Source of the DNA: Clostridia bacterium
GTDB taxonomy: Bacteria; Bacillota; Clostridia; Christensenellales; Aristaeellaceae
DNA: 48,230 nucleotides
Reading direction: 5' to 3'
Assembly: GCA_017437265.1 (NCBI GenBank)
Contig: JAFSBN010000169.1
Location: 1 to 48,230, forward strand
The notes under the pieces were generated by a model. It did no database searches, was not told where the DNA came from, and worked only from the letters and a program-made list of their open reading frames with translations. This document shows positions 1-27,747 of this stretch, piece after piece. The position numbers were made by a program, and so were the translations under genes. Numbering within the stretch: the stretch's first letter is position 1; every line of letters starts with the position of its first letter.

Positions 1-873
1 ATCGAGGAGAACATTCCTCTGGGCCCCCTGCACAACCCCGCCAACCTGCAGGGCATTCTGGCCTGCGAACAGGTTATGCCCAACACCCCCAATGTGGCTG
101 TGTTCGACACCGCTTTCCACCAGACCATGCCCGCCAAGGCATATATGTACGGCATTCCCACCGAGTACTATGAGAAGTACCAGATCCGCCGCTACGGCTT
201 CCACGGCACTTCTCACCGCTTTGTGAGCAAGCGTACCGCCGAATTCCTGGGCAAGAAGCCGGAAGATCTCCGCATCATCACTGCGCATCTGGGCAACGGC
301 TCCTCTCTGGCCGCTGTGGAATACGGCAAGTGCGTGGATACCTCCATGGGCCTCACGCCTCTGGAAGGCGTGCTGATGGGCACCCGCTCCGGTAACCTGG
401 ACCCCGCCGTGGTGGAATTTGTGTGCGACAAGGAAAAGCTGACCGTGAACGAAATGCTGAACCTGTGCAATAAAAAGAGCGGCTTGCTTGGCATCAGCGG
501 CATCTCCAACGACATGCGCGATGTGGATAACGCCGCCAAGGATGGCCATCCCCGTGCTCAGCTGGCCCGGGATATGCTGGTTTACGGCATCCGCAAGTAC
601 ATCGGCTCCTACGCTGCTGCCATGAACGGTGTGGACGTGATCGTGTTCACCGCCGGTATCGGTGAAAACAACTATGGCCTGCGTGAAGACATCATGGCCG
701 GTTTCGAATACATGGGCGCCAAGCTGGATAAGGAAAAGAACGCTGCTCTGGCCTGGCCCAATGTGCATGAAGCCGTTATCTCCGCCGATGACAGCAAGGT
801 GCTCATCTGCGTGATCCCCACCAACGAAGAAATCGCCATTGCCCGGGATACCCTGGAACTGGTGAGCAAGTAA
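1..873 (+). CDS. ackA: Acetate kinase, C-terminal ~290 aa (5' end cut by window edge)
   Basis: The frame is open from base 1 and the track ORF 76..873 continues it. Motifs PLHNPANL, AFHQTMP, YGFHGTSH and IPTNEE are typical of AckA. Stop TAA at 871-873. Confidence 0.95.
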   Translation: MEENIPLGPLHNPANLQGILACEQVMPNTPNVAVFDTAFHQTMPAKAYMYGIPTEYYEKYQIRRYGFHGTSHRFVSKRTAEFLGKKPEDLRIITAHLGNGSSLAAVEYGKCVDTSMGLTPLEGVLMGTRSGNLDPAVVEFVCDKEKLTVNEMLNLCNKKSGLLGISGISNDMRDVDNAAKDGHPRAQLARDMLVYGIRKYIGSYAAAMNGVDVIVFTAGIGENNYGLREDIMAGFEYMGAKLDKEKNAALAWPNVHEAVISADDSKVLICVIPTNEEIAIARDTLELVSK

Positions 874-888
874 TTTTCTCATATTCAG

Positions 889-927
889 AAAGCATCTGTT
901 TTCTACGGAAAGCAGGTGCTTTTTTTC
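889..927 (+). terminator. Intrinsic terminator after ackA
   Basis: AGCATCTG (891-898) pairs with CAGGTGCT (913-920, one G-U pair), followed by TTTTTTT. Confidence 0.6.
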
Positions 928-1001
928 TGTGAAGGTATGGAAAACGATGGGTATATATGATAGAATATGATCAATGCATGAAAACAAAGGAGAAATGTGC
1001 C

Positions 1002-2408
1002 ATGAAAAAGCTTCACATGGGCCCTGCCCATTGCGCATTGGATTTGGGCGACGGCAGCGAACGTGCCGAATACGTCAATCAGGATTATATCCTGCATAAG
1101 ATGGGCCGGCCCCACCGTGCCGTGAATATTATGTACACTTACTATCCCCATGACAAGGAATGGCCTGCCCGTATTTCCGAAGCATGGAAGGACAAGAACG
1201 TCACCTTCCAGTGGGATTATCCCTATGATGATTATTTCCCCTACAATGTGAACGGTCAGCCCTTTGAACAGATGAAGGACATCCGTCGTCACGGTCAGGA
1301 AGTGCTTCTGACCCTGACTCTGGACTGCGGCTGCACCGATGAAGAACTGAAAGAAATCGCCCTGCAGCTCAAGCCCTTTGGCCGGATGTGGATCCGCATC
1401 AATCATGAATGCTGCGGCACTTGGTTCCAGCACAACAAGCGCTACACCTACCCCGAAGTGGGTGCGTTTTTCAACCGTTTTGCCGGCATCATCAAGGAAT
1501 ATGCTCCCAATGTCAGCGTGATTTTCTGCGGCGGCTGGGGCATGCCCGACGGCCATGTGGAACAGGAAGAAGCGTTCAAGGATTGCTACAAAGTGGCCGA
1601 TGCATGGAGCTGCGACGGGTATCTGGCGCTGCACTACGGCTGGCCTTATGATATTGCAGAAGTGGGCGGCGGCCGCTACAAGGGCGGCTGCGTGGCGGAC
1701 ATGGTGCAGCAGTTTGAACGAACCTACAAGCGTGCCTGTGAGTTGGCAGGAGAACACCGGCCCATGATCACCGCAGAATTCAATACCGACGGCGACGTGA
1801 CCGGCCCCCGGCTGCAGGGTGAATCCATTGTGCGCTTTGCTCATCACTGGCGGGACAACAAGGTGGAATGGTTCCGCGCCATCAGCCTTTATCAGTTCCG
1901 TGACCGGGGCAGGCTGGGTCTTGAAATTGAAGACCCCAACAATAAGGGCGTGGGCATTGAGCAGCCCATGCTGGCAGAGTACCGGGACAAGGTGCTCCAC
2001 GATGATTGGTTCATGCCGCAGATGACCGAAGGGGAAGAAGCTTCCGTCCCGGCACAGCTGCGCTGGGGCGGCAGTGAAGATGCTGACGGCCTGGCCATGG
2101 AAATTGAGTTTGAGGGCAATCCGGAATTCTGCGAAATGACCGTGGAACAGAAAATCGGCCTGATGGTGGAGCTGAACGGCCGCTGGTTCTACAAAGCCCC
2201 CGGTACCAAAACCATCGATTTGATGAGCGCTTTCTTTGATAAGCCTCTGTCCGGCCCCTGCAAAATGACCATGAAGATTTTTGCACCGCCGGCTGACGGC
2301 GTGAACGTGGACGACGGCAGCGCCGACTGGACGGAAAACTATCGCACCGTGCTGGAGGAAGCGCCTAAGATGCGCATCCGCTACGAACTGCCCGGCAGCG
2401 TGACCTGA
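1002..2408 (+). CDS. Hypothetical cytoplasmic protein, possibly a clan GH-A-like (beta/alpha)8 glycoside hydrolase with a C-terminal beta-rich domain
   Basis: ORF 957..2408. ATG 1002 has AAGGAG 9 nt upstream. WIRINHECCGTWF resembles the acid/base NE(H) motif of GH26/GH5-type barrels, and ITAEFN is a possible nucleophile strand. No signal peptide. The function call is weak. Confidence 0.55.
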   Translation: MKKLHMGPAHCALDLGDGSERAEYVNQDYILHKMGRPHRAVNIMYTYYPHDKEWPARISEAWKDKNVTFQWDYPYDDYFPYNVNGQPFEQMKDIRRHGQEVLLTLTLDCGCTDEELKEIALQLKPFGRMWIRINHECCGTWFQHNKRYTYPEVGAFFNRFAGIIKEYAPNVSVIFCGGWGMPDGHVEQEEAFKDCYKVADAWSCDGYLALHYGWPYDIAEVGGGRYKGGCVADMVQQFERTYKRACELAGEHRPMITAEFNTDGDVTGPRLQGESIVRFAHHWRDNKVEWFRAISLYQFRDRGRLGLEIEDPNNKGVGIEQPMLAEYRDKVLHDDWFMPQMTEGEEASVPAQLRWGGSEDADGLAMEIEFEGNPEFCEMTVEQKIGLMVELNGRWFYKAPGTKTIDLMSAFFDKPLSGPCKMTMKIFAPPADGVNVDDGSADWTENYRTVLEEAPKMRIRYELPGSVT

Positions 2409-2414
2409 ACGAGG

Positions 2415-2827
2415 CAGGGGGCTTACGCAGCCCCCTGTACCCCCGGCAGCAGGGCCATTGGCCCTGCACCCGTTCTGCGATACAGAAAACTGATTAAACA
2501 AACTTTTTTCCGCATGTTACTTGAGGAAACGGAAAGAGAGCCCACGGGCGCAATGAAAACAAAGAAAAAGCCGGAGGAAAGTGTACTTTCCTGCCGGTCT
2601 TTTTCTATTGTTTTCCCCGGATGCATAGCATCCGGTTGGCGGTGTTTCACCGCCCAGCCCGTGGCATCAGTGCCGCAGCCAACCGAAAATGTTGGGCCTC
2701 TCTTTTGCAAGCCTGTTGCTGACGGATACTTGCAACAGCGGGCAATTGCTTGTTGGTCACGCCAACTACTTTCGCTATTGGGTCCAGGGATGAAATCCCT
2801 GGTGGGGTGCAGGGGCGAAGCCCTGCA
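2415..2827. repeat. Copy A of a ~413-nt structured intergenic element (unclassified ncRNA or MITE-like)
   Basis: Aligns block-wise with 27770-28181 in the same orientation. Shared hairpins, a 30-nt identical block (2780-2809), compensatory helix changes, and no shared ORF. Confidence 0.8.
2557..2616. terminator. Bidirectional terminator-like hairpin embedded in repeat copy A
   Basis: CCGGAGGAAAG(2571-2581)/CTTTCCTGCCGG(2586-2597), with an A-rich 5' flank (AAAACAAAGAAAAAG) and a T-rich 3' flank (TCTTTTTCTATTGTTTTCC). Confidence 0.5.
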
Positions 2828-2833
2828 TAGGGT

Positions 2834-3232
2834 TTACAATTCAATAATGGAAAGGCCCTGTTCCATGGCGTCTTTTACTTTCAGCAGAGCCTGCACAGCT
2901 TCTTCCTTGGTTTTGTAGGCGCACAGGTTGTTCCAGCTGCTGATGCGGGTTTGCACCTGTAAGGTGGTGCCGTCGATACGCAGGCCGCCGTAGCAGGGAT
3001 ACAGCCTGGTTTTGTCCGGGCTGAGCACTTTGGTGCGCTGCCGGGGCTGAATGACCGTGCCGTCCTTGAGAACAAACTGATGGCTGTGCAGCACCTCTTC
3101 CATGCCTTCGGCGAAAAAATCGCTGATGGAATCGCTGACCAATTCCTGCAGCTTGTCTTCCATTTCTTCCCGAATAACTTCCAGGGCATCTTCCAGCATG
3201 GCTTGCAGATCATCCATCATTTCGTTATCCAT
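2834..3232 (-). CDS. Hypothetical protein with a very acidic helical N-terminus, co-transcribed downstream of punA
   Basis: 132-aa ORF with AAGGGAG upstream of the ATG. Lies 12 nt after punA. No motif recognised. Confidence 0.65.
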   Translation of the reverse strand: MDNEMMDDLQAMLEDALEVIREEMEDKLQELVSDSISDFFAEGMEEVLHSHQFVLKDGTVIQPRQRTKVLSPDKTRLYPCYGGLRIDGTTLQVQTRISSWNNLCAYKTKEEAVQALLKVKDAMEQGLSIIEL

Positions 3233-3244
3233 ACTCGTTCTCCC

Positions 3245-4060
3245 TTACATCCTTTCGATCACAGCGGTGACGAGGGCGGCAAAGCTGTCCCGGGCCTTCA
3301 GGCCCATTTCCATCACTTCCTGATGGTTGATGGGCTGATCCAGTACGCCGGCGGCCATATTGGTAAGGCAGGAAATACCCAGCACTTTGATGCCGGAATG
3401 GTTGGCCACGATGGTTTCGGGCACGGTGCTCATACCCACGGCATCGCCGCCCAGCGTGCGCACCATGCGGATTTCCGCCGGAGTTTCGTAGCAAGGGCCG
3501 CTCATCCAGGTGTAAACGCCCTGCTGGAGCTTGAGCCCCATGTCCTGCGCACAGTCAAGGGCCGTCTTCCGCAGATCCTTGTCAAAGGCATTGCTCATAT
3601 CGGGGAAGCGGGGGCCAAATTCGGAAAGATTTTTGCCGATGAGGGGGTTCATGCCGGAGAGGTTAATGAAATCGGTGATGAGCATCAGGTCACCGGGATA
3701 GAAAGCGGTGTTCACAGCGCCGGCAGCATTGGTGACGATCAGCTTCTTCACTCCCAGCTTTGCCATCACCCGGACAGGCAGGGTCACGTCCTCCATGGGG
3801 TGGCCTTCGTAGGCATGGAAGCGGCCGCTCATCACCAGAATGCGCTTGCCGCCCTTGATGCCGGTGGACAGCACGCCGGCATGGCCCTGCACGGAAACGG
3901 AGGGGAAGCCGGGAATTTCGGAGTAAGGGATGGACTTTGCGTCGGAAAGGGTATTGCCAAAGTCGCCCAGACCGCTGCCCAGGATGATGGCGATTTCCGC
4001 CGTGCCGATTTTTTCTTCAATGGCTTTTGCGGCCAGATTGATGCGTTCCATGTAATCCAT
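3245..4060 (-). CDS. punA: Purine nucleoside phosphorylase (trimeric PNP family, PunA/PupG type)
   Basis: Motifs ILGSGLG, VEGHAG-like SVQGHAG, SGRFHAYEGH, VTNAAG and VGMSTVPE. Same drm-punA order as B. subtilis. Confidence 0.9.
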   Translation of the reverse strand: MDYMERINLAAKAIEEKIGTAEIAIILGSGLGDFGNTLSDAKSIPYSEIPGFPSVSVQGHAGVLSTGIKGGKRILVMSGRFHAYEGHPMEDVTLPVRVMAKLGVKKLIVTNAAGAVNTAFYPGDLMLITDFINLSGMNPLIGKNLSEFGPRFPDMSNAFDKDLRKTALDCAQDMGLKLQQGVYTWMSGPCYETPAEIRMVRTLGGDAVGMSTVPETIVANHSGIKVLGISCLTNMAAGVLDQPINHQEVMEMGLKARDSFAALVTAVIERM

Positions 4061-4063
4061 TGT

Positions 4064-5230
4064 TCAGCCCTCCATCTCTTTTGCAAAGGATACAGCGGGG
4101 AAGGAGGCCTTTGCCCCCAGGTAATCGCAGATGGTTTGTGCAATATCGGCAAAGGAAGTGCGGGTGCCGATGTCACAAAGGCCCTTCATGCCCTTTTTCC
4201 AGCAGAGGATGGGGATATATTCCCGGGTATGGTCGGTGCCGCGGTGGGCAGGGTCGCAGCCGTGATCGGCGGTGATGATGAGAAGATCCTCTTCTCCCAT
4301 CCGGGCGGTGAATTCGGGAATGCGGCTGTCAAAGTATTCCAACGCCTTGCCGTAGCCCTGCACATCCCTTCTGTGGCCAAAGAGCGTATCAAAATCTACA
4401 AGATTGACAAAGAGCAGGCCGTTGAAATCGGTTCTGAGGTATTCCAGCGCCGCATCGATGCAGGCGGGATTGCCGGATGCATGGTTGCTGCCGGTAATGC
4501 CCCGCATGGCGAAAATATCTTCGATTTTGCCCACGGCCAGGGTGTCATAGCCTTGTTCCTTCAGCACGTCCAGCATGGTAGGGGCAATGGGTTCCATGGA
4601 GAAATCCCGGCGGTTGCCGGTACGGGTGAAGGCACCGGCCTTTTCGCCGATGAAGGGACGGGCGATGACCCGGCCCACACCGTGCTCGCCCTGCAGTTGT
4701 TTCCTTGCAATGCGGCACATGTCATACAGCTTTTCCGGGGGATAGAGCCTTTCATGGGCGGCAATCTGGAACACACTGTCGGCGGAGGTATAGACGATGG
4801 GATAGCCGGTACGCAGGTGTTCTTCTCCCAGTTCATCCAGAATGGCGGTGCCGCTGGCAGGCTTGTTGCCCAGCACTTTGGTGCCGATGGCCTGTTCAAA
4901 AGCGGCGATCACGTCCTCCGGAAAGCCGTCGGGGTAGACAGGGAAGGGCCGGTGCAGAATGATGCCGCTCATTTCCCAGTGACCGGTGGTGGTATCCTTG
5001 CCCATGGATTTTTCCATGGCACGGCCGAAAACACCCTTCGCCTTTTCTGATGCTTCCAGATGCAGGCCGGGCAGATGACCAAGGCCCATCTTCAGCATGT
5101 TGGGCACTTGCAGGGGCATGCTTTGGGCAATATGGCCGATGGTATTGGCGCCTTCATCCCCAAAGGATGCGGCATCGGGCAGGGCACCGACGCCGGCGCT
5201 GTCCAGTACGATCAGGGTTACTTTTTTCAT
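4064..5230 (-). CDS. deoB: Phosphopentomutase
   Basis: 388 aa. N-terminal LIVLDSAGVG, plus TADHGCDP and HTREYIP motifs typical of DeoB/Drm. Confidence 0.93.
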   Translation of the reverse strand: MKKVTLIVLDSAGVGALPDAASFGDEGANTIGHIAQSMPLQVPNMLKMGLGHLPGLHLEASEKAKGVFGRAMEKSMGKDTTTGHWEMSGIILHRPFPVYPDGFPEDVIAAFEQAIGTKVLGNKPASGTAILDELGEEHLRTGYPIVYTSADSVFQIAAHERLYPPEKLYDMCRIARKQLQGEHGVGRVIARPFIGEKAGAFTRTGNRRDFSMEPIAPTMLDVLKEQGYDTLAVGKIEDIFAMRGITGSNHASGNPACIDAALEYLRTDFNGLLFVNLVDFDTLFGHRRDVQGYGKALEYFDSRIPEFTARMGEEDLLIITADHGCDPAHRGTDHTREYIPILCWKKGMKGLCDIGTRTSFADIAQTICDYLGAKASFPAVSFAKEMEG

Positions 5231-5250
5231 AACAATACGCTCCTTTCGGG

Positions 5251-5799
5251 TTAAGGAACAAGGGGTTCTGTTTCTTCTGCCGGTTTATTGTCATCCGGCG
5301 GGGCGGGCAGATCATTCAGCGAAGAAAGGCCAAAGTGGGAGAGGAAAAAATCCGTGGTGCCGTACAGCATGGGGCGGCCCAGGGTTTCTTTTCGGCCCAC
5401 CACTTCGATCAGGTTTTTGTTCACCAGGGACTGTACCGAATAATCGCATTTCACGCCGCGGATGGCCTCGATTTCCAGCTTGGTAACCGGCTGGCGGTAG
5501 GCAATAACGGCCAGGGTTTCCATGGCGGACTGAGAAAGGCTTTGCTTCTGGATGGGCTGCAGAAGCCTTTCCACATAGGGGGCGTAATCCGCCCGGGTGG
5601 ACAATTGGATGTGGTTGCCAAAACGCTTCAGGCAAATGCCCCGGCGGTGGTAGGAATAATCGCTGTCCAGCGCATCAATGGCCTGCCAGGTTTCGTCTTC
5701 CGTCACTTCCAGGGCCCGCTGCAGTTCATGCACCTCCACCGGCTCCCCGGCAACAAACAGGATGGCCTCAATCACATGGGCCAATTCATTCATATCCAT
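5251..5799 (-). CDS. scpB: Segregation and condensation protein B
   Basis: IEAILFVAGEPV start, YRQPVTK..IEAIRGV winged-helix motifs. Overlaps the scpA stop. Confidence 0.9.
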   Translation of the reverse strand: MDMNELAHVIEAILFVAGEPVEVHELQRALEVTEDETWQAIDALDSDYSYHRRGICLKRFGNHIQLSTRADYAPYVERLLQPIQKQSLSQSAMETLAVIAYRQPVTKLEIEAIRGVKCDYSVQSLVNKNLIEVVGRKETLGRPMLYGTTDFFLSHFGLSSLNDLPAPPDDNKPAEETEPLVP

Positions 5800-6550
5800 C
5801 GATTTTCATGTCTCCTTCCCCGGGGTGTTCCGGTTGTCTGGGCTCCAGCAGGATATCACCGAAAACGCCGTCCTGCACTACGCCGGCCCGGCCCAGACGC
5901 AAAAGCTCCAGCACGGCCAGAAACAGCGTTACCACTTCGTCACGGGAGGGATGTTCGCTGAAGAGTTTATCAAAGTGCACCGGGCCTTTTTTCAGATGCT
6001 TCAGAATGTGGGCCGTGCACCGGGGCACGGTGTATTCATCCCGGATGATACGCCGGGCTGTCTGCACCGGCTCTTCTTCCGTGTCCTCCTGAATACGGGC
6101 CATCACCCTTGCAAAGGCGGCCAGCAGCCCGTCCATGGTGAGCCCGGTCAATTCCAGGGTGGGGGGCGGCAGGGGGTATTCCTCCGGCAGCTTCTGGTAC
6201 ATCAGCGCCGCTGCCTTTTCAAAGCCCTGCATGTCCTGAGAAATCTGCTTGAACCGCTGGTATTCTTCCAGCTGACGGATGAGGGCAGCTTCCGGATTTT
6301 CCTCTTCCGTCTCATCCTTGGGCTTTGGAAGCAGGGAACGGCTTTTGATTTCCAGCAGCGTGGCCGCCATGGCGATAAATGCACTGGCATCGTCCATATC
6401 CAAATCCGGCGCATCCTGTACGGACTGGATATACTGATCCGTTACCTGAGAGACGAAAATATCCTTGATATCAATTTTTGCCTTGCCAATCAGGAACAGC
6501 AGCATATCCAGCGGCCCTTCAAACTGATCCAGGCGTAATGTAATGGCCAT
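5786..6550 (-). CDS. scpA: Segregation and condensation protein A (kleisin)
   Basis: FEGPLDMLLFLI N-terminal kleisin motif, immediately upstream of scpB. Confidence 0.9.
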   Translation of the reverse strand: MAITLRLDQFEGPLDMLLFLIGKAKIDIKDIFVSQVTDQYIQSVQDAPDLDMDDASAFIAMAATLLEIKSRSLLPKPKDETEEENPEAALIRQLEEYQRFKQISQDMQGFEKAAALMYQKLPEEYPLPPPTLELTGLTMDGLLAAFARVMARIQEDTEEEPVQTARRIIRDEYTVPRCTAHILKHLKKGPVHFDKLFSEHPSRDEVVTLFLAVLELLRLGRAGVVQDGVFGDILLEPRQPEHPGEGDMKIDGYE

Positions 6551-7357
6551 TTACAGCCCTCCGATAATCCAAAGTAAGAACCAGATCACCTTGTCCTGCA
6601 CAAAGAACAAGGCGGTGGACAGCAGACCGTCCAGAAAGCTGGTGAATGCCAGCAACAGCATAAACACCAGGGTGATGCCCCGCACCGCTTTGGCCGGGAT
6701 GTGCAGTTTGCCCCGGAAGAGGATATCGTTGAAAAGGTGATACCCATCCAATGGGGGAATGGGCAAAAGGTTAAACAGCGCCAGGCTCATATTCACCATG
6801 GAAAACCGCATCAGAAACCGCTGCACATAAAGCAGCCATTCGTTCTGCAAAAAGGGCGTCAGGCCTATTTCCGCAAAGATGGACAGGTTGTGATCCTGCA
6901 TCAGAACAAGGGAATAGACGTCCTGGAAGGAAAGGAAGCTTTTGTTTGACAAAAAAGGAGCGGCGGTAAACAGTTCCGGCTTGAACAGGAACATTTGCAC
7001 GATCACCATCAGCACGCTGGAACAAAGGAACAGGAACAGGTTTACTGCAATACCGGCAAAGGACACCAGAATATCGTCCCGTTTGAAATTCTTGTAATTC
7101 CGGGGGTTCACCGGCACCGGTTTTGCCCAGCCGATGCCAAACAAAAACATGCACACGGTGCCGATAGGGTCCAGATGGTGCAGGGGATTGAGCGACAACC
7201 TGCCCAGCATCTGAGCGGTAGGGTCGCCGCATTTCATGGCCATATACCCATGGGCCACTTCGTGCAGCGTCAGTGCAATCAATACTGCGGGAATCTGATA
7301 TAAAAGCGTGATAATAGCATTGATATCGCCGCTTAACACATTGGATAGTATGCCCAA
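6551..7357 (-). CDS. Site-2 protease family (M50) membrane metalloprotease
   Basis: HEVAHG zinc motif, NLLPIPPLDG second motif, multiple hydrophobic segments. Confidence 0.85.
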   Translation of the reverse strand: MGILSNVLSGDINAIITLLYQIPAVLIALTLHEVAHGYMAMKCGDPTAQMLGRLSLNPLHHLDPIGTVCMFLFGIGWAKPVPVNPRNYKNFKRDDILVSFAGIAVNLFLFLCSSVLMVIVQMFLFKPELFTAAPFLSNKSFLSFQDVYSLVLMQDHNLSIFAEIGLTPFLQNEWLLYVQRFLMRFSMVNMSLALFNLLPIPPLDGYHLFNDILFRGKLHIPAKAVRGITLVFMLLLAFTSFLDGLLSTALFFVQDKVIWFLLWIIGGL

Positions 7358-7485
7358 TTGATACGGCCTCCTTTTGCTTCTTTACCATCCACATTATACT
7401 ATATCCGCATCAAAAACACAAGCAAGAAGCATGGGGGATGCATTATATAGAAAGAAGTATGAAAAATGTAGGAAATTCGACACAA

Positions 7486-7514
7486 TTGATGGTGCATATC
7501 CATTGATTTATACT
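7486..7514 (+). promoter_or_regulatory. Candidate sigma-A promoter for the giant TasA-like gene
   Basis: TTGATG (7486-7491), 17-nt spacer, TATACT (7509-7514). About 100 nt upstream of ATG 7616. Confidence 0.3.
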
Positions 7515-7615
7515 ACAAAATGTGGTATTCTTATCGTTGGATAAATTTGTAATTTGAAAGCGTGGAAAATAAAGCGTATATCCGCATGATTTCTTTGGAG
7601 GAGGCGTCATCCCCT

Positions 7616-10600
7616 ATGCGTAAACACCGCTCGCTTGTACTGGTATTGATGATGATCGTTCTTTGCGCCACCATCATTGTAGGCTCCACCATGGCCTACT
7701 ATACCGACGAAGTGCCCGCAGGTGAAAATCTGGTCACTTCCGGTGATCTGGAAGTGAAATTTGAATGGGCTGATAAACTGGGTGAAGGGTGGCAGGACGC
7801 CGCCTCAGCCGGTCCGATTTTCAATCAGACCCATTGGGAACCCAATTTCACCACGGTGAAATACATTCGGGTTTCCAACACGGGCGATATGCCTTTCCAG
7901 TATGAGTTGAACGTGGTGCCCACGCTGGTGCCGGAAAACGGCGTGAACCTGATGGACGTGATCGACGTCTATTTTGGCGTTGTAGACGAGAATACGCCTG
8001 CCATTACCGCTGCCAACTATGCCGATGAACTGCAGAAAGTGGGCAATCTGACAGCGCTTCTCAAAAATGAAAACGGTGCCGGCTATGGCATTGTGCTTCC
8101 CAAAGACGCCAAAGGCACGCTGCCTCAGGGCGCAATAGCCTATAATGAATCCGTCACCGTCTGTATTGCGCTCCATATGCAGCACACCGCCGGCAACGAA
8201 TATATGAACCGGTCCGTGGGTGAAGGCTTTAACGTGCAGCTGGCAGCCACTCAGTACACTTATGACGATGCTTTCGGAACGCTTTTCTCCGGCGGTGCGC
8301 AGCTGCCTGAAGTGGAATATGCCACCAGCAAAACCGTCTCCGTCACGCCCGATGAAAACGGCCTTGTGCCTTACGATATCGTATTCGAAAGCGATACCGG
8401 CGTCATTGCCGTCGTGCCCAAGGGTGCCAGGATGGAACAGGGTGCCAATCAGCTGATCCTGATCGTTTACCCCAAAGCCAAATCCGATGCCAATCTTACC
8501 CTTTCCGAAAATGAACAGGTGAAGGCCTGGGAAGTGGAAGTGGAAGGCCTGGCCGATGACAATACCGTGCCTGTCCGCTTCACCCTGCCCGAAGCCATGC
8601 AAAAGGGCCTGAACATCGGCAACTATTCCCTCTACCATGTGGAAAACGGCACTTCCGTTCCCATGACCCGTGTGGAAGAAATCACTGCCTCCTCTGCTCA
8701 CAACTCCTTCTCCTACAACCCCGCCACCGGTGACATGGGCCTTGCCCTGGCCACCTTCAGCGAAGTGGCGATTGTGTCTGATACCACCAAAGCCTGGGAA
8801 GGCAATTTCGATTATTCCTGGTACACCAACGCTGTGGTGCCGGTTGCTGAAGGTGAGGCTGATTATATCATCGCCAATGCCGACCAGCTGGCCGCCTTCG
8901 GCGCCATCGTAGGCGGTATGGACGGCCAGACCCAGGATTCCTTCTCCGGCAAAACCGTCAAGCTGATTGCCGATATCAATCTGGGCTATGATGAAGAAAA
9001 TAAAGATGAAGAAGGCAATAGTAAGAATATCATCTTCTATCCCATCGGCTACTACAACAGTGAGAAGTCTTACGAAAAGGTCAGCGGTGGTTCTGTTACC
9101 AGCAGTGTTTCTTCCTTCGAAGGCACCTTCGATGGCAACGGCCACACCGTCAAAAACTTCTACCAGAACACCTGGGAGATGTTCGGTGACTATAATGATG
9201 GCTATTCCGACACGCCCAACCACTACAAGGATGCCATGGGCCTGTTCGGCTATGTGGTGAACGGCACCATCAAGAACCTGACCGTGGACCATTTCTCCTC
9301 CGACGGTGAATTCACCCCCACCGGTGTGATCGCCGCCTATGCGGTGAACTCCACCTTCGAAAACATCGCCATCACCAACTGCAACCCCCGTGTCTACAAC
9401 ACCGGCAACGGCGGCATCGTGGGCATCGGCGGCAATTCCGACGATCCCGATACCTACAAGCTCACCTTCAACAATATCACCATCGATAACACCAACAAAA
9501 TCTCCGCCCTCTGGGGCAGCTGGGACGTTGCCTGCGGCGGTCTGGTGGGCATGTTCCGGGGTGCCGGCCATGTTTATATGACCAACTGCCATGTGGCCGC
9601 TCAGATGGACGTGAACAATGACGTTTGCGGCAACTATCAGTACTATTGGTACCGCTACTCCGGCATGATGGTGGGCACCAACAAGAACATGACCACCGAT
9701 GCCAACGGCTACACCGTTCCCGAAACAGAAAAATTCCACGCTGAAGGCTGCACCGTCCATTTCGGCGACTGGAACGATTATTACTACTGCGAACTGGTGG
9801 CCAATTCTCTGGCTTCTTACACCCACGATCATCAGTTCAGCCGTCTGACCGAAATCAGCAGCCTTGACGAAATCAAGTCCGGCGATACCTGGACGAAGGC
9901 GGGCAACTTCCTGCTCATCAGCGACGACACCAAGACCTGCTACCATATCGTAAATAAAGACGGCACTCTGACCCAGCACCTGCACACCGATGCCGGTAAA
10001 GAAACGGTTGCGGGCATGTCTGGCATATTGAAGGAAGACAAGCAAATCATCTACTTGCCTTTCAATCAGCTTTTTACAGGTTATGGCTGGGGCGTGAAGC
10101 ACATCCCTATTTACGATGATGGTACGCCGAATCCGTTTGTCGGGGTAACCATTCATGAGCGAAAGATTGCCAAGTCTGTTGAAAAATTTACCGCTAATGG
10201 CAATGTGCTGAAATTGAAGAAAGATACATCCTATACGTTGGACGTGTTGTTCTCTGCAATTGAAGAGGCAGAAGTGCCGATCAACGATTCATCTGTGACT
10301 GTTGGTATTACCAACCATTCTGAGGAAAATCCCGTAACCGCGACATTTGACGGCACGCCTACAAATTGGCAAGAAAAAACCATTACCTTTACCAGTAATG
10401 GAACAATTGATATTATCATTCAGGACTATCAGTTCTGTATTCCCACAAAATTGACTGTTGATATTGCTGATGCAGAAGAAATTAAAAAAATTGAAAAATT
10501 CGAAGTTGCATTTGATCATGATACAATAACAGATGGTAATCAAAATTATACCGAAAAATATATGTATCGTGTAGGTAATGCGAATCCCGTTTCGATGAGT

Positions 10601-13294
10601 TCACTGTTTGAAGCGAAGCTTGATGCAACAATCGGCACTGTAGAAGTGACAGTTGAAACGATTGATGGTAATGCTTCCGGCACTTACACCTCCAATGCCA
10701 CCGATTGGACGAAGGGCACCATCCAGTTCAGCGGCACCGGTGTGGTGAAGGTGACCATCACGGATAACGTTTACTGTATTCCCACCGAACTGACTCTGGA
10801 AGTGGTGGATGCTGTGAACGCCACCACCGCCGCCAGCGCAACCAAGAACAACGTGGTGCTGCTGAATGACTGTGGGTTCGGTTCGCTGGAGGTGTCCGGC
10901 GGCTATACGCTGTACGGCAACGGCTTCACCATGACCTGCGGCAGCGACTCGGCTGCGCTGGATATGGGTTATGCTTTTGTGACGCTGAACAATGGTATAC
11001 TGGACAATGTGCAGATTGATTGCCCCAACTTCGATTATGCAGTATTGTACAAGTCCAATATGACCGAAAGCGGTAACCGTAGCGAAACTACCGACAGAAC
11101 CCGTTACTTCAATGTGAAGAGCGGTGTGATGGTCTCCGGCAACAGCCAGATCCTGAACAGCCGCATTTCCGGCGGCCGTGCTGCTGTGAACGTGACCGGC
11201 GGCAATGTGGTGATCGATAATTCCCGCATTGAGCTGGGTGCTGTGGCCAGCCTTCTGGTGGGTAGCGCCAACAGCCTGACCCTGCGGGATGTGACCCTGG
11301 TGCAGAAGCCCACTGCTTCCACCTATGACAGCAACAAGACACTGATGGGTTTCAGTGTGCTGTTTGTCTGCGATGCAAACGGTGATGCGGCCCCTGTAAC
11401 CCTGGAAGGCACGCTGGTGCAGAATGCTTGGGTTGATGAAAACGATAAGCAGTATGTGCCCAGCGCCGGTCAGAGCATTATCAGCACGGTGCTTGGAAAG
11501 ACGGAATATCTCCATGACCTTGACGGTAACGGCACAAAGGAATCTCTGAACCTTGGCTTTGCCTACATGCCGGAATCCCTGACTTCCAAGGTGAATACCA
11601 CCACCATCACCGATAATCGTACCAACAAGGATACTGTTCCTTATGATTATGCGGAAGTGAGCATTCTCAATGGCAAAACCTATGTGTACTCCTACAAGAA
11701 CACCCATGGCACGGAAGATTCCTTCAAGACGGAAAGCGAATATAAGCCCAACAAGTATGGTGATATCATCACGGTAAACTATTCCGATACGGCGGATGGC
11801 CTGATCACCGGCAAATCCTTCGGTACGGATGGCTGGGTGTACGAGCTGAATGTGGATCTGGACAAGCTGAGCGGCTATGCGCTGGATTTCAGCAAGCTGA
11901 GCATGAGCGTCAATGGCGTGACGGTGACCGACTTCAAGGTGAATGGCAATGACAAGCCCACTTCCCCTGTAGCAGTAACGGCAGGCGGCACCACCTACAC
12001 CCTGACCGCTACCATTGACGATAAGGAATACACCGCCACCTATAAAGTGACCGGCACCGAAACCAGTAAGGAATCACCTTCCAAGATTTCGGGACCGACT
12101 GCAGAAGGCTTTGGTGTGGCCAAGAGTTATGGCGGTGACTGGAGCGGGGCAGCAGATGTGCTTACCGGTGTGAAGGTAAAGTATTGGAGTGTTGCGGAAA
12201 ACAAGTATGTTGAGTTTGATTTCTCCCAATTCACAGTACCTGGCAACGCTGGAAAGCTGAATGGAACGAATAACTATTGGGAGTATACACATACCAATAA
12301 TGACTTCACATTGAAGGTTACCAATACAGTGGCGATCCATTCCGGTAAATCCGTTTATGGTATGCCGATTCGCGGTACTGATGGAAAACTGTATTTTACA
12401 ATTTCCTCTACGAATGGTTATGTGGGCTCTGGTACTACAAGCCGAGCGATTACCATGCAGTATGAATTCACTGATAATAACGGCGGAGAAAAGCTCACAT
12501 TTACACACACATTTAACATTTCCTATAGTAAAAACGGGCAGTATAGCTATAGTGACTTGTCGGGGAGTGGCAAGCTGACGGAGTTGACAGACAACAGTGG
12601 TGGCGGTATCACAGAATGCGTCACCCCCGACACGCTGGTCACGCTGGCGGATGGAACGCAGGTGCGGGTGGATAGCCTGACGGGGGATGAAAAGCTGCTG
12701 GTGTGGAACATGGAAACCGGCAAGCTGGACGAAGCGGGCATCCTGTTTGTGGATCATGACCCCGAAGCGGAATTTGAAATTGTGCATCTGTACTTCTCCG
12801 ATGGCACGGATGTGAAGGTGATTTACGAGCATGGCTTCTGGGACTATGACCTGAACCGGTATGTGTATCTGGACAAGGATGGGGCAAAGTACATCGGCCA
12901 CAGCTTCTTCAAGCTGAACGGCAACGGCGGCGAAAAGGTGCAGCTGACGGATGTGGTGATTGAAAAAGAAATGACCACGGCCTGGAGCCCTGTGACGGAA
13001 AACCATCTGTGCTACTTTGTGAACGGTATGCTCTCTATGCCCGGCGGTGTGGGCGGATTGTTCAACATCTTTGATGTGGACGCCGATACCATGATGTATG
13101 ACATGGAAGCGCTGGCGAAGGATATTGAAACCTATGGCCTGTTCACCTATGAAGAACTGAACGCCATTGTGGAACTGCCGGAAGAAATGTTCAATGCGGC
13201 CGGCGGTGCTTACCTGAAGATTTCCATCGGCAAGGGGAACCTGTCCATGGATGAACTGATCTACATGATCAACCGCTACAAGCCCTTCTTCTGA
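7616..13294 (+). CDS. Giant (1,892 aa) secreted TasA/camelysin-fold fusion protein with adhesin-like modules and a C-terminal Hint domain
   Basis: ATG 7616 has GGAGGAGG upstream (the track ORF opens at GTG 7562). The N-terminus MRKHRSLVLVLMMIVLCATIIVGSTMAYYTDE is a SipW-cognate type signal. The TasA-like core ends GNEYMN..FNVQLAATQYTYDD. FEGTFDGNGHTVKN / GGLVG marks a GLUG-type region (~8790-9700). There are two tandem Ig-like modules (~10170-10820), beta-helix-like repeats (~10850-11300), and a Hint domain starting at Cys codon 12617. Confidence 0.85.
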   Translation: MRKHRSLVLVLMMIVLCATIIVGSTMAYYTDEVPAGENLVTSGDLEVKFEWADKLGEGWQDAASAGPIFNQTHWEPNFTTVKYIRVSNTGDMPFQYELNVVPTLVPENGVNLMDVIDVYFGVVDENTPAITAANYADELQKVGNLTALLKNENGAGYGIVLPKDAKGTLPQGAIAYNESVTVCIALHMQHTAGNEYMNRSVGEGFNVQLAATQYTYDDAFGTLFSGGAQLPEVEYATSKTVSVTPDENGLVPYDIVFESDTGVIAVVPKGARMEQGANQLILIVYPKAKSDANLTLSENEQVKAWEVEVEGLADDNTVPVRFTLPEAMQKGLNIGNYSLYHVENGTSVPMTRVEEITASSAHNSFSYNPATGDMGLALATFSEVAIVSDTTKAWEGNFDYSWYTNAVVPVAEGEADYIIANADQLAAFGAIVGGMDGQTQDSFSGKTVKLIADINLGYDEENKDEEGNSKNIIFYPIGYYNSEKSYEKVSGGSVTSSVSSFEGTFDGNGHTVKNFYQNTWEMFGDYNDGYSDTPNHYKDAMGLFGYVVNGTIKNLTVDHFSSDGEFTPTGVIAAYAVNSTFENIAITNCNPRVYNTGNGGIVGIGGNSDDPDTYKLTFNNITIDNTNKISALWGSWDVACGGLVGMFRGAGHVYMTNCHVAAQMDVNNDVCGNYQYYWYRYSGMMVGTNKNMTTDANGYTVPETEKFHAEGCTVHFGDWNDYYYCELVANSLASYTHDHQFSRLTEISSLDEIKSGDTWTKAGNFLLISDDTKTCYHIVNKDGTLTQHLHTDAGKETVAGMSGILKEDKQIIYLPFNQLFTGYGWGVKHIPIYDDGTPNPFVGVTIHERKIAKSVEKFTANGNVLKLKKDTSYTLDVLFSAIEEAEVPINDSSVTVGITNHSEENPVTATFDGTPTNWQEKTITFTSNGTIDIIIQDYQFCIPTKLTVDIADAEEIKKIEKFEVAFDHDTITDGNQNYTEKYMYRVGNANPVSMSSLFEAKLDATIGTVEVTVETIDGNASGTYTSNATDWTKGTIQFSGTGVVKVTITDNVYCIPTELTLEVVDAVNATTAASATKNNVVLLNDCGFGSLEVSGGYTLYGNGFTMTCGSDSAALDMGYAFVTLNNGILDNVQIDCPNFDYAVLYKSNMTESGNRSETTDRTRYFNVKSGVMVSGNSQILNSRISGGRAAVNVTGGNVVIDNSRIELGAVASLLVGSANSLTLRDVTLVQKPTASTYDSNKTLMGFSVLFVCDANGDAAPVTLEGTLVQNAWVDENDKQYVPSAGQSIISTVLGKTEYLHDLDGNGTKESLNLGFAYMPESLTSKVNTTTITDNRTNKDTVPYDYAEVSILNGKTYVYSYKNTHGTEDSFKTESEYKPNKYGDIITVNYSDTADGLITGKSFGTDGWVYELNVDLDKLSGYALDFSKLSMSVNGVTVTDFKVNGNDKPTSPVAVTAGGTTYTLTATIDDKEYTATYKVTGTETSKESPSKISGPTAEGFGVAKSYGGDWSGAADVLTGVKVKYWSVAENKYVEFDFSQFTVPGNAGKLNGTNNYWEYTHTNNDFTLKVTNTVAIHSGKSVYGMPIRGTDGKLYFTISSTNGYVGSGTTSRAITMQYEFTDNNGGEKLTFTHTFNISYSKNGQYSYSDLSGSGKLTELTDNSGGGITECVTPDTLVTLADGTQVRVDSLTGDEKLLVWNMETGKLDEAGILFVDHDPEAEFEIVHLYFSDGTDVKVIYEHGFWDYDLNRYVYLDKDGAKYIGHSFFKLNGNGGEKVQLTDVVIEKEMTTAWSPVTENHLCYFVNGMLSMPGGVGGLFNIFDVDADTMMYDMEALAKDIETYGLFTYEELNAIVELPEEMFNAAGGAYLKISIGKGNLSMDELIYMINRYKPFF

Positions 13295-13559: not shown

Positions 13560-13601
13560 AAAAAAAGCTGCCGTATGCTTTCGCACACGGCAGCATTTTT
13601 A
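13560..13601. terminator. Bidirectional intrinsic terminator (serves the minus-strand TasA-like gene)
   Basis: AAAAAAA-GCTGCCGT (13567-13574) ... ACGGCAGC (13587-13594)-ATTTTT. Confidence 0.7.
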
Positions 13602-13614
13602 TAAAAGGAAAGAA

Positions 13615-14877
13615 TTACTGGGCCATAACATCGAGGTTGTACTGCAAGGGGGTTTCCAGTGCGTACACCGTACGGGCAGCCACAACATAATGGCCGGTTT
13701 CGTCTTCGTTATTTTCATTGTTCATGGTGTCACCCTGCAGTTCGTAGAGGCGAAGTTCCACGGTCAGCTTCGTGCCTACGTTTTGTTCGTCAAGGTTGAA
13801 CACACCGCACATGAATTCGCCCACATCGCTGCAGATGGATTCATAGCTGAACTGGATACCGCGGCCGCTGACATCCTTCAGCAGACGGTATTCAACACCG
13901 GGAACAGCATCCTGGGGAATCAGGAAACCAAGAGAACCGTAGGAACCATAACCGCCTACCAAACCAGCAGACTCTGCTTTGATCTCCTTATCAACAGTGA
14001 TAACATAGTCAGCATGCCAATCGCCATAGGGGCCAGCAGCTGCTTCTTCAGCAGTTTCAGTAGCTTTGAACAAATAAGCTACGTCTGCCTTCAGATCCTT
14101 ACCAACGGGCTGGAAGCTGGCAAGGTTATAAAGAGTGAAGTCGGGATTGGTATTATCGACAATGATGTCAGCCTTGGGAAGGTCGTTGTCATAATCGGCT
14201 TCGCCATCATAGGTATGATCGAAGTCGTCGTTTTCCCAAGTGTACTGGGTGGCCAGCAGTTCGAGAACAAAGCCGTCGCCGCCGATGGACAGGTTCTGGT
14301 ATTCGTTGCCGGCAGATTCCTGCATCTTCAGAGCGATGATCATGCCCACTTCGCCACGAGGAGAAGTATCGTCTTCATTCACATCCGTGGAGCCCACGCC
14401 TTCAGCAGGCAGCAGCACACCGTGAGCAGCGCCATCGATGTCACCCATCAGATCGGCGATGGTGCCGACAGGGGCGGTAGAAGCGATGACGTCACGGTCG
14501 ACGGTGGTGCCGGCGGGGAAGGTGTATACATCAATTACTTTGGCCAGCTGATATTCGCCGGTGGAAGCAACATCTTCCTTCACGTTCAGCTGATATTTGA
14601 AAGCCAGGTCGCCCAGGTTGGCAATCTTTACGTCACGAACCTGAACATAGCCGGGTTCCCAATATTTATAGTCAAAGATGGCACCGGTAGAAGCATCTTT
14701 GTATTCATCGGAACCATGCTCGGCCCAGGTGAAGCCCAAATCCAGCGTACCGGACTTGATGATGTTGCCGGTGGATTCTTCGGAATCCGTGAACCAGGCG
14801 AAGGTGCCGCCGATGGCAGTGGCGAAAACGGCCACGATCAGCAGGGCAACCAGCAGGGTGCGGTTGTACTTTTTCAT
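13615..14877 (-). CDS. TasA/camelysin-family secreted protein (420 aa) with an extra ~200-aa C-terminal domain
   Basis: MKKYNRTLLVALLIVAVFATAIGGTFAWFTDSEE is a SipW-type signal. Also SGTLDL, YWEPGY, and AGNEYQN..FVLELLATQYTWEND. ATG 14877 has GGAAGGAA 8 nt upstream (the track ORF starts at 14898). Confidence 0.85.
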   Translation of the reverse strand: MKKYNRTLLVALLIVAVFATAIGGTFAWFTDSEESTGNIIKSGTLDLGFTWAEHGSDEYKDASTGAIFDYKYWEPGYVQVRDVKIANLGDLAFKYQLNVKEDVASTGEYQLAKVIDVYTFPAGTTVDRDVIASTAPVGTIADLMGDIDGAAHGVLLPAEGVGSTDVNEDDTSPRGEVGMIIALKMQESAGNEYQNLSIGGDGFVLELLATQYTWENDDFDHTYDGEADYDNDLPKADIIVDNTNPDFTLYNLASFQPVGKDLKADVAYLFKATETAEEAAAGPYGDWHADYVITVDKEIKAESAGLVGGYGSYGSLGFLIPQDAVPGVEYRLLKDVSGRGIQFSYESICSDVGEFMCGVFNLDEQNVGTKLTVELRLYELQGDTMNNENNEDETGHYVVAARTVYALETPLQYNLDVMAQ

Positions 14878-14922
14878 AGTGTCGTTCCTTCCTTTCATGT
14901 AGGCAGAAATTTACATATACAC

Positions 14923-26526: not shown

Positions 26527-27747
26527 ATGAGCAAAATTCAGCTGGGCGTCATTTACGGCAGCCGCACCTGCGAACACGAAGTATCCATCATCAGTGCAGT
26601 ACAGTTGATGAAAAATGCCGATCCCGAAAAATATGACGTGATCCCGATTTATGTGAGCCAGAAGGGCGAATGGTTTACCGGCAGTGCGCTGCTGGATATG
26701 AAAACCTATACCCCTTTTGATCCTTTCAGCAAGGGTATCATTCCCGTCCGGCTGGATATGACCGCCGGCAGCGGTGCCCTGATCCGCTTTGTGCCCCCCA
26801 AGGGATTATTTGGCGGCGGCAAAGAAGAAGTGGTGGCACGGCTGGATGTGGTGATTCCGGTGCTCCATGGCATGCACGGGGAAGACGGCTCCGTGCAGGG
26901 GATGCTGGAACTTTCGGATATTCCTTATGCTTCCAGCGGCATTACGGCTTCTGCCGTGGGCATGGATAAGATCACCATGAAGCGTTTCTTCCGGGGCATG
27001 GGCTATCCCATTTTACCCGATTGCGCCGTGACCCGCGCCCAGTGGGAACAGGATAAAAACGCCGTGATGGATACCATCGAAAAGGCGCTGCCGTATCCGG
27101 TGTTCACCAAGCCTGCGTATCTGGGCTCCTCCATCGGCGTCAGCCGGGCCGGGGACAGAAAAGAGCTGGAAGAAGCACTGGAACTGGCTTTCTCTTATGA
27201 CCGGCGGGTGCTGGTGGAAGAAGGACTGGATATGCCCATCGAGGTGAACTGCTCTGTGCTGGGCTTTGATGGGGATGTGAAGGCCAGCGTGCTGGAAATG
27301 CCCAACACCGGCTCTGCTTTCCTGGATTTTTCCGAAAAATATCTGGCTGGTACCGGCAGCAAGGGTATGGCCAGCCTCAAGCGCATCGTGCCTGCCCCCA
27401 TCGGCGATGAACTGACAAAGGAACTGCAGCAGCTGTCCTGCCGCATTTTCAGCGATATGGATTGCAAGGGCGTGGTGCGTATCGACTATATGCTGGACCG
27501 CCACAGCGACCATTACTACATCACCGAAATCAACACCATCCCCGGCAGCCTTGCCTTCTATCTGTGGGCAGAGACGGGGCTGAAGTATCCGCAGCTGATT
27601 GATGAAATGGTCAAGTGCGCCATCAAGGCTCACGAAGAAAAGCACAAGAACAATTTTGCCTTCACTTCCGATATCCTTTCCGGCGTGACCCTTGGCGGTA
27701 CCAAGGAAAGCAAGCTGGGCGGTGTGAAGGGCGGCAAGCTGGGCTGA
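26527..27747 (+). CDS. ddl: D-alanine--D-alanine ligase (long form with a Gly/Lys-rich C-terminal tail)
   Basis: SCEHEVS-like CEHEVSI, HGxxGEDG, and EINTIPG ATP-grasp motifs. Confidence 0.92.
   Translation: MSKIQLGVIYGSRTCEHEVSIISAVQLMKNADPEKYDVIPIYVSQKGEWFTGSALLDMKTYTPFDPFSKGIIPVRLDMTAGSGALIRFVPPKGLFGGGKEEVVARLDVVIPVLHGMHGEDGSVQGMLELSDIPYASSGITASAVGMDKITMKRFFRGMGYPILPDCAVTRAQWEQDKNAVMDTIEKALPYPVFTKPAYLGSSIGVSRAGDRKELEEALELAFSYDRRVLVEEGLDMPIEVNCSVLGFDGDVKASVLEMPNTGSAFLDFSEKYLAGTGSKGMASLKRIVPAPIGDELTKELQQLSCRIFSDMDCKGVVRIDYMLDRHSDHYYITEINTIPGSLAFYLWAETGLKYPQLIDEMVKCAIKAHEEKHKNNFAFTSDILSGVTLGGTKESKLGGVKGGKLG

Follow-up and report, generated by a model that had tools for sequence, protein, structure and literature searches.

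Hint domains and C-terminal autoprocessing

The Hint (Hedgehog/intein) fold occurs in inteins, in the Hog domains of Hedgehog proteins and in bacterial intein-like (BIL) domains. Here we consider a predicted module of this kind encoded at the end of a gene in a 48,230-nucleotide stretch of DNA from a Clostridia bacterium (GenBank assembly GCA_017437265.1, contig JAFSBN010000169.1, positions 1 to 48,230, forward strand), hereafter the window. On the best reading, the gene product is a large exported protein of the cell surface or the extracellular space that ends in a self-contained 'Hog-like' module for autoprocessing, one member of a family of such modules. 'Hog-like' is a label for features and architecture and not for a demonstrated sister relationship; by raw scores the family is not clearly nearer to Hog domains than to inteins or BIL domains.

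Hog domains of Hedgehog and of nematode and protist proteins (PF01079; 1AT0, 6TD6) form the C-terminal module of a secreted protein, begin with the nucleophilic Cys and have neither a terminal Asn nor splicing. The same holds for the module family, whose hosts, unlike those of Hog domains, are bacteria and, for one copy, an archaeon. By definition a Hog domain is a Hint fold with a helical extension attached directly behind it (PMC2362128), and the architecture of the family agrees, with an extension of ~70-85 residues. Asp or His at site 46 sets Hog-type Hint domains apart from other Hint types (PMC7765530), and in Hedgehog this residue, D303, is the general base coordinating both autoprocessing steps (PMC9163320). 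Hedgehog C143 carries a branched intermediate (PMC12054796), and the sterol-recognition region is a hydrophobic, membrane-associating helix-loop-helix (PMC7906309), whereas the tail of the family is acidic, compact and five-helical, and unrelated to it in sequence. Cholesterol, the Hedgehog adduct, is not an expected substrate in the anaerobic hosts of the family.

BIL domains of types A and B, reportedly described by Amitai et al. in 2003 and Dassa et al. in 2004, resemble the module family in that both are Hint folds within non-conserved secreted or surface bacterial proteins for which N-terminal autocleavage is expected, and type B shares with the family the lack of a canonical intein C-terminal motif. 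The defining mark of type A is a conserved His-Asn at the C-terminus (PMC7765530), a motif missing in the family. BIL domains lie in hypervariable regions and have variable downstream sequence, whereas the family has a fixed, conserved helical domain and a position at or near the C-terminus. In BIL2 of Tetrahymena BUBL1 the thioester serves to conjugate the upstream domain to Lys through isopeptide bonds, with no ATP (PMC8616854). BIL2 (6Y75, 6TMM) differs from the module in being eukaryotic and intracellular, with ubiquitin-like flanks, no helical tail and 16% sequence identity to it; it also keeps a C-terminal Asn (the crystallised mutant is N143A), which the family does not have.

In sortase chemistry a thioester is resolved by a wall nucleophile. 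LPXTG/sortase sorting signals occupy the same slot as the module, the extreme C-terminus of adhesin-like or protease proteins bearing a signal peptide, and the likeness is one of functional analogy only: the module comprises 225 folded and, by analogy, self-catalytic residues, the sorting signal a short motif and a transmembrane segment, and there is no homology between them.

A predicted Hint fold at the end of the gene

The features of the gene and its module, in window coordinates, are as follows.

7562 to 13294, forward strand: open reading frame as called mechanically, with start GTG 7562
7616 to 13294, forward strand: complete gene for an exported protein of 1,892 residues, with probable start ATG 7616
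7616 to 7711, forward strand: N-terminal export signal MRKHRSLVLVLMMIVLCATIIVGSTMAYYTDE, probably of the SipW/TasA type
7712 to 12616, forward strand: passenger region without a Pfam or NCBIfam domain, ending in the linker DNSGGGITE
12590 to 12616, forward strand: the Gly-rich linker DNSGGGITE, directly before Cys1
12614 to 12619, forward strand: predicted scissile bond Glu(-1)-Cys1 (Glu1667-Cys1668 from ATG 7616; Glu codon 12614 to 12616, then TGC at 12617 to 12619 for Cys1668)
12617 to 13036, forward strand: predicted Hint fold, module residues 1-140
12752 to 12754, forward strand: Asp46 codon
12830 to 12832, forward strand: His72 codon
12899 to 12901, forward strand: His95 codon
12986 to 12997, forward strand: Ser124-Pro125-x-Thr127 codons
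13004 to 13006, forward strand: His130 codon
13010 to 13012, forward strand: Cys132 codon
13022 to 13027, forward strand: Asn136-Gly137 codons
13034 to 13036, forward strand: Ser140 codon
13037 to 13102, forward strand: connector MPGGVGGLFNIFDVDADTMMYD, in the position that inteins fill with His-Asn/+1 and Hedgehog with 'CYA'
13103 to 13291, forward strand: family-specific five-helix C-terminal domain, which with the connector makes up an acidic 85-residue tail

The whole module, Hint part and tail, is thus the last 225 residues of the protein (~25 kDa).

Sequence searches alone leave the identity of the Hint part undecided. A single-sequence Pfam scan of the window protein returned PF01079 below threshold (E 6.6e-4 to 1.1e-3; 19-20 bits against a cutoff of 29.7), and an NCBIfam scan returned intein_Nterm (TIGR01445; E 0.13; 13.3 bits against 24.5) and a trace of an intein-containing DnaB model, with no NCBIfam model covering the module. 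Sequence searches of the PDB, whether with the single sequence or with the family profile, gave weak, N-terminal matches (DnaB intein, E 0.068; Drosophila Hedgehog, E 1). Among 63 family members, PF01079 was matched by 39, all sub-threshold (best E 5e-5), and Intein_splicing (PF14890) by one (E 0.027); the PT-HINT, Hint_2 and Vint models of Pfam were matched by none of the 63 (no match to PF13403 or PF07591 at E <= 0.1).

Structure prediction decides the question. The AlphaFold2 model of the module, built on a 63-sequence alignment, has a pLDDT of 91.9 and a pTM of 0.86, and is all-beta from residue 1 to ~145, followed by five helices. Searched against the PDB with Foldseek, it gave 63 matches at E <= 1e-3, and every one of the 50 listed has the Hint fold, with TM scores of 0.73-0.85 (normalised to the target) over PDB Hint chains. 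The best match is 6y75, BIL2 of Tetrahymena BUBL1 (E 3.3e-9, TM 0.81); Hedgehog-C (1at0; E 3.3e-8, TM 0.78 across all 145 residues of 1at0), a Clostridium thermocellum BIL domain (2lwy; E 6.9e-8, TM 0.81) and DnaB mini-inteins are likewise among the matches. The model, with its Foldseek matches, shows the all-beta horseshoe of ~140-150 residues that is expected of a Hint fold. Going by the model, the N-terminal part of the module very probably has this fold and belongs to the Hint family. The first-pass annotation had begun a Hint domain at Cys codon 12617, a placement that the model and its matches bear out well beyond chance, and both of the strings on which it drew, CVTPDTLVTLADGTQVRVDSL and SPVTENHLCYFVNGMLS, are found in the translation.

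The module family and its conserved residues

A word-indexed search with the last 245 residues returned 271 proteins, all unnamed or 'hypothetical' in their source databases and lacking any precomputed Pfam domain over the module. Searching 1.84 billion cluster representatives (clusters at 50% identity) with the family profile gave 1,801 clusters at E <= 1e-30, a figure that rises to 3,590 at E <= 1e-3; the family thus numbers no fewer than 1,800 to 3,590 clusters. Roughly 1,100 of the matches are weak (E between 1e-10 and 1e-3) and might form a bridge to other Hint families. The position of the module was judged on the best 150 of the 3,590 clusters: these proteins, 279 to 4,264 residues long, have it at their very C-terminus or close to it. 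In the contigs of one genome per species of GTDB, 267 stretches encode the module, of which 80 were kept as loci; the hosts of these 80 are almost all uncultured gut or rumen Clostridia, labelled as Clostridia, Eubacteriales or Oscillospiraceae bacterium, Christensenella sp., Candidatus Coproplasma, Scatosoma or Gallimonas.

Conservation was counted over 238 family modules. His72, Ser124, Pro125, Thr127, Gly143 and Asn150 are present in all 238; His95, Ser140 and Pro142 in 237 each; Asp46 in 236 (the other two have Glu) and Cys132 in 236; Cys1 in 235 (the exceptions being two alignment gaps and one Met); and Asn136, His130 and Met141 in 234, 233 and 230, respectively. Conservation sets in exactly at Cys1. 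The linkers that precede it are unrelated and often Gly/Ser-rich, and the -1 residue is variable (Ser 27, Gly 21, Glu 12, Thr 9, Asn 7, others), as it is in BIL domains and inteins.

These counts bear on the possibility that the module is a non-catalytic, Hint-like structural or binding domain that undergoes no cleavage. The sub-threshold standing of all profile matches and the missing equivalents of the block-B Thr and of Hedgehog C143 would fit such a domain. Against it stand the (near-)invariance of Cys1, Asp46, His72, His95, Ser124, Pro125, Thr127 and Cys132 in modules joined to unrelated passengers, the onset of conservation at Cys1 itself, and the retention of a residue that, to our knowledge, degenerate Hint domains normally lose; we consider a non-catalytic role very unlikely.

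The Drosophila Hedgehog-C sequence, verified against PDB 6td6 and 1at0, aligns with the family profile without a gap from Cys1 to His72 in both hmmsearch and hhalign (hhalign E 4.4e-4). Cys1 and His72 fall on Hedgehog C258 and H329, and Asp46, in the family motif 'ILFVD', falls on D46/D303 in Hedgehog 'ILFMD'. The likeness to Hedgehog goes further than the first-pass annotation could make out. His95, His130 and Cys132 are invariant residues of the family's own, unlike Hedgehog. Over Hedgehog-C residues 95-163, hhalign pairs the C-terminal subdomain of Hedgehog, 'NQVLVRDVETGELRPQRVV', with the N-terminal subdomain of the family, 'EKLLVWNMETGKLDEAGILF', a pairing in which the internal pseudo-twofold duplication of the fold shows through. 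Because hhalign picked the N-terminal subdomain, the correspondence at block F/G rests on the whole-domain structural match and on alignment by hand.

At the positions of the intein His-Asn/+1 residues the family reads Ser140-Met141-Pro142-Gly143. In the window protein the residues after ...FVNGMLS are M-P-G-G, not H-N-[CST], and the gene ends 85 residues on. The absence of an intein C-terminus, which the first-pass annotation had noted for this one protein, extends to the whole family, as none of the 238 modules has His-Asn or a +1 Cys/Ser/Thr. As far as sequence can tell, splicing and Asn-mediated C-terminal cleavage are not expected, because the terminal Asn and the +1 nucleophile are missing family-wide.

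It is hardly credible, then, that the module is an intein, or a PT-HINT cassette of a polymorphic toxin, with the tail as C-extein or released toxin. The fold does agree with inteins, the weak TIGR01445 match and that to the intein-containing DnaB model point the same way, and polymorphic toxins are known to put a Hint domain before a C-terminal toxin. Besides the missing His-Asn and +1 residues, however, the host proteins are non-conserved and the upstream junction is variable, the tail is conserved (59% identity) and not polymorphic, no immunity-like downstream gene is conserved in the 80 loci, no PT-HINT model of Pfam is matched, and the gene is set among chromosomal housekeeping genes. A class 1 intein in particular is contradicted by the lack of His-Asn/+1, by the unrelated upstream proteins (LRR, subtilase, Flg_new and others) and the position at or near the C-terminus, instead of an insertion at a conserved site of a conserved host, and by the curated models TIGR01445 and PF14890, neither of which is passed.

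The C-terminal helical tail

The tail comprises 85 residues (13037 to 13291), with a pI of 4.05 and 14 Asp/Glu against 5 Lys/Arg. Modelled alone with AlphaFold2 it forms the same helices, at a pLDDT of 85. A fold search with the tail found nothing in the PDB (best E 4.9) or BFVD (best E 2.7), and a Pfam scan of it gave no match. On these models the tail would be a novel five-helix domain, confidently predicted to be compact. The first-pass annotation had described ~80 acidic, helical residues at the position of the Hedgehog sterol-recognition region, following a passenger of ~1,650 residues. The lengths are in fact 85 and 1,667 residues (from ATG 7616; 1,685 from the GTG); the acidity, the helices and the position are as described, and the tail is co-conserved with the Hint part, while a match in sequence or fold is lacking. 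By eye, 'DIETYGLFTYEEL' and 'GKGNLSMDELIYMINRY' could be taken for EF-hand or dockerin loops, a reading that was rejected: the predicted loops have only 4-5 residues, the putative ligand positions are helical and Dockerin_1 is unmatched.

Over the 238 modules the Hint part averages 68% pairwise identity and the tail 59%, and the connector, MPGGxxGLFNIF..., is the best-conserved stretch of the module (mean top-residue frequency 0.78). Since the tail is conserved jointly with the Hint part, and the connector most of all, the two form, on sequence grounds, a single evolutionary unit. In Hint folds generally, as intein and Hedgehog structures show, the chain exits the domain beside Cys1, and we infer that the connector must emerge from the catalytic centre. 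It is mainly because the ultra-conserved connector must do so that we propose a tail that would shape the active-site pocket, over which it would pack. In Hog domains an extension of ~60-100 residues is needed to recruit the adduct; the tail is of that size and in that position but has no likeness to the sterol-recognition region, and any part of it in recruiting an adduct is putative.

Eight members carry an extension after the tail. That of P0102 is unrelated to the others and ~90 residues long; the other seven (P0062, P0063, P0095, P0129, P0158, P0183 and P0189) have an extension of low complexity, 40-60 residues long, in which His, Asn and Gly abound (NGHGNGN...), with a basic end (RRRGR). 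One guess is that it serves metal or surface binding.

Export signals, passengers and an archaeal copy

An export signal is recognisable in 95 of 146 newly returned representative proteins, including 78 Sec-like signals, 6 of the SipW/TasA type (FAWFTD), 2 of the prepilin type and a few that are lipoprotein-like. In the remaining 51 a Met start is missing or no signal is recognised, and these proteins are possibly 5'-truncated. One and the same module is therefore found with at least four kinds of N-terminal signal, namely Sec, SipW/TasA, prepilin (GFTMIEMLVVIAVIA; PF07963) and lipoprotein-like (examples of this variety are P0196, P0209 and P0032; P0134, P0185, P0188, P0202, P0214 and P0243; and P0144, P0154 and P0265), so that the role of the module appears to be independent of the export route.

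Passengers are diverse. In 50 full-length representatives, the domains found are BspA-type LRR_5 (19), Flg_new (15), subtilase S8 (13), LRR_8 (8) and IgA peptidase M64 (4), and anchors of the SLH, cell-wall-binding, LysM or LPXTG kind are absent from all 50. When 1,060 open reading frames from the 80 loci were clustered all against all, no conserved partner gene emerged, only antisense artefacts and, in a minority, TasA-like neighbours; this fits an autonomous, self-catalysed module.

Two pairs of loci (L011 and L022; L043 and L074) represent metagenome-assembled genomes with two module genes each, whose DNA is 80-81% identical over the module. In one of these paralogue pairs nothing else is shared, so that shuffling has joined the module to different passengers. 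At only 80-81% identity, the paralogous modules gave reason to reject concerted evolution, or recent gene conversion, inside a genome.

The archaeal copy (L059; gene 55-6708, module 6001-6681) is 61% identical and keeps Cys1, Asp46, His72 and the SMPGG motif. It ends a protein of >2,217 residues with MBG domains, on a 1.17-Mb contig labelled Ca. Methanomethylophilaceae archaeon, and its flank (7057-12680) carries PAC2, aIF2-alpha and diphthamide synthase, genes that are signatures of archaea. The GC content is 46% in the gene and 50% in the flank, a difference that suggests horizontal transfer from gut Clostridia to a gut methanogen.

Probable self-cleavage and possible fates of the thioester

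By analogy with the Hint superfamily, we propose the following course of events. The module would fold following export, and Cys1, helped by His72 and Asp46, would make an N-to-S acyl shift at Glu-Cys. The resulting thioester would be attacked by an external nucleophile held by the connector and the helical domain, the tail acting like the Hedgehog sterol/adduct-recognition region or like Tetrahymena BUBL1 BIL2. The ~25-kDa module would then be released, leaving a passenger whose C-terminus is modified and possibly tethered. Analogy makes self-cleavage at Glu-Cys1 likely; transfer of the thioester to a nucleophile other than water is a tentative proposal, a little short of an even chance, and the full explanation, transfer step included, is offered just as tentatively.

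The alternative for the last steps is hydrolysis only, in which water resolves the thioester and the passenger is shed for maturation or release, the helical domain serving transient non-covalent retention, folding or the timing of cleavage. We regard this as possible, if somewhat doubtful. In its favour, those bacterial Hint domains that have been characterised (BIL types A and B, PT-HINT) work mostly as cleavage devices (PMC7765530). No acceptor or partner gene is conserved near the module genes, secreted proteases (S8, M64) are common passengers, the module is kept in an archaeon with a different envelope, and the His/Asn/Gly-rich, basic extension among the eight extended members could itself bind a surface. 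Hydrolysis would, on the other hand, make it hard to explain an 85-residue tail of 59% identity with a connector above the catalytic domain in conservation, or the retention of the Hog-specific Asp46. Hedgehog-C without its sterol-recognition region (Hedgehog-C17) forms a thioester that is stable in water and needs an added nucleophile, and constitutive self-cleavage would defeat retention of the passenger by an anchor. Transfer is favoured because hydrolysis leaves an obligatory, conserved extra domain and the Hog-specific Asp unexplained; the evidence for transfer over hydrolysis is circumstantial.

Several points weigh against our reading as a whole. Every Hint or intein match in Pfam and NCBIfam lies below its curated threshold, and the known bacterial Hint domains mostly only cleave. 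The tail is acidic and globular and has no likeness to the sterol-recognition region of Hedgehog. Asp46 serves the acyl-shift step in Hedgehog as well, so that its conservation is no proof of transfer. Hedgehog T69, the block-B Thr, is replaced by Ile (231 of the 238 modules), and the position of Hedgehog C143 ('SCY') is taken by the invariant Pro142 in an alignment of the last strands made by hand over 'SPVTENHLCYFVNGMLSMPGG'. The archaeal chromosomal copy speaks against a nucleophile specific to the Gram-positive wall, and sortases coexist with the family: in L007 a sortase gene (6107-6898, forward strand; PF04203, E 5.5e-11) lies 70 nt downstream of the family gene, and in L040 another (10883-11608, reverse strand; PF04203, E 2.4e-10) lies ~4 kb downstream, in a locus that also encodes (7367-8398, forward strand) an SPxTG-type substrate with the sorting signal 'SPFTG...hydrophobic...KKKKD' at its end.

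The last two points bear directly on sortase-independent covalent anchoring to the Gram-positive wall, a subset of the transfer explanation in which a peptidoglycan amine, a teichoic acid or a membrane lipid resolves the thioester. The module does stand at the position of a sorting signal on adhesin-like and protease passengers without another anchor, it would be the last part to leave the Sec channel, near the membrane, and there is no sortase motif or LPXTG signal within the 48-kb window. Yet the related loci L007 and L040 have sortases, some members already have lipoprotein-like or prepilin-type N-terminal anchors, an intact copy resides in the chromosome of a Methanomethylophilaceae host that has neither murein nor teichoic acids, and a strongly acidic tail would be unfavourable for anionic wall polymers or membranes. 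Wall anchoring in this specific sense is distinctly unlikely. The first-pass annotation had suggested that the module replaces a missing sortase signal, an idea weakened by the sortase genes near family genes; given these genes, the module would be a parallel device and not a substitute in organisms without sortase.

A broader form of the transfer explanation is that the module is a bacterial counterpart of Hedgehog cholesteroylation, an enzyme-free C-terminal ligase whose helical domain selects a nucleophile other than water, and that it covalently attaches hundreds of adhesins and proteases in gut Clostridia and at least one gut methanogen; it might even be the closest prokaryotic relative of the ancestor of eukaryotic Hog domains. 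So extended, the proposal is rather unlikely. Candidates for the nucleophile in such a ligase are glycolipids or polysaccharides of the envelope, host or mucus glycans, and a further protein subunit.

In fold and chemistry the module falls within a known superfamily; its novelty is the combination of a Hint domain with a new helical domain at or near the C-terminus of thousands of exported proteins. The module family is absent from Pfam, NCBIfam and the searchable literature, and literature searches found no description of it or of Hint-based anchoring in Gram-positive bacteria. If both self-cleavage and transfer hold, the module would represent a very widespread, unrecognised means by which gut anaerobes process or tether their surface proteins with no sortase or helper enzyme, a prokaryotic example of Hedgehog-type chemistry with the same general-base Asp, bearing on the origin of the animal Hog domain, and a compact 25-kDa tag for site-specific C-terminal modification of proteins. 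Even plain self-cleavage would define a large new domain family that is now 'hypothetical' in databases; in Christensenellales-like and Oscillospiraceae-like metagenome-assembled genomes it would alter the annotation of adhesin-like, LRR, subtilase and IgA-peptidase proteins in their thousands.

The gene and its surroundings

A ribosome-binding site, GGAGGAGG, lies at 7597-7604, and ATG 7616 stands 11 nt after it; because of this preceding site, ATG 7616 is the likely start. Locus L035 encodes a full-length orthologue, 61% identical across 1,864 residues. The export signal of the window protein is itself below threshold (TIGR04090, E 7e-5 to 1e-4; TIGR04088, 13.4 bits against a cutoff of 19), whereas P0202, a family member of similar size whose N-terminal signal is of this type too, scores 26.2 bits against TIGR04088 and passes, and the window protein is probably a member of the SipW-signal subgroup of the family. 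No Pfam or NCBIfam domain matches its passenger (7712-12616, ~1,640 residues) at E <= 1, and the name adhesin, used in the first-pass annotation, is no more than putative for it. GLUG-like 'GG(I/L)VG' motifs and 'FEGTFDGNGHTVKNF' can be made out in the passenger by eye and would suggest a beta-helix.

In locus L001, a 386-residue 'short' member (2495-3655) lies 20 nt downstream of an LRR_5/Flg_new reading frame (831-2474), in another frame. The pair looks like a single gene that a frameshift has divided, through an assembly error or in a pseudogene, and several other matches of 300-400 residues on long contigs may be similar fragments.

Downstream of the module gene, the window contains:

13567 to 13594, reverse strand: terminator-like hairpin
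13615 to 14898, reverse strand: convergent neighbour, a 427-residue camelysin/TasA-like protein (PF12389, E 2e-5; TIGR04088, 31.5 bits against a cutoff of 19)
24881 to 26512, forward strand: Mur ligase
26527 to 27747, forward strand: D-Ala-D-Ala ligase
28212 to 29249, forward strand: YkuD L,D-transpeptidase
33264 to 34154, forward strand: VanY-type D,D-carboxypeptidase

The convergent neighbour has a clear SipW-type signal peptide (FAWFTD), and its homologues neighbour the family gene in 20 of the 80 related loci, a matter of context only, linkage to the module not being established. No signal peptidase S26/SipW motif was found in the 48-kb window. The surroundings are chromosomal housekeeping genes (ackA, scpA/B, plsX, smc, ftsY, Mur ligase, ddl and others), and a mobile-element reading of the window was rejected on this ground. 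The cell-wall genes between 24881 and 34154 on the forward strand are apparently unrelated to the module.

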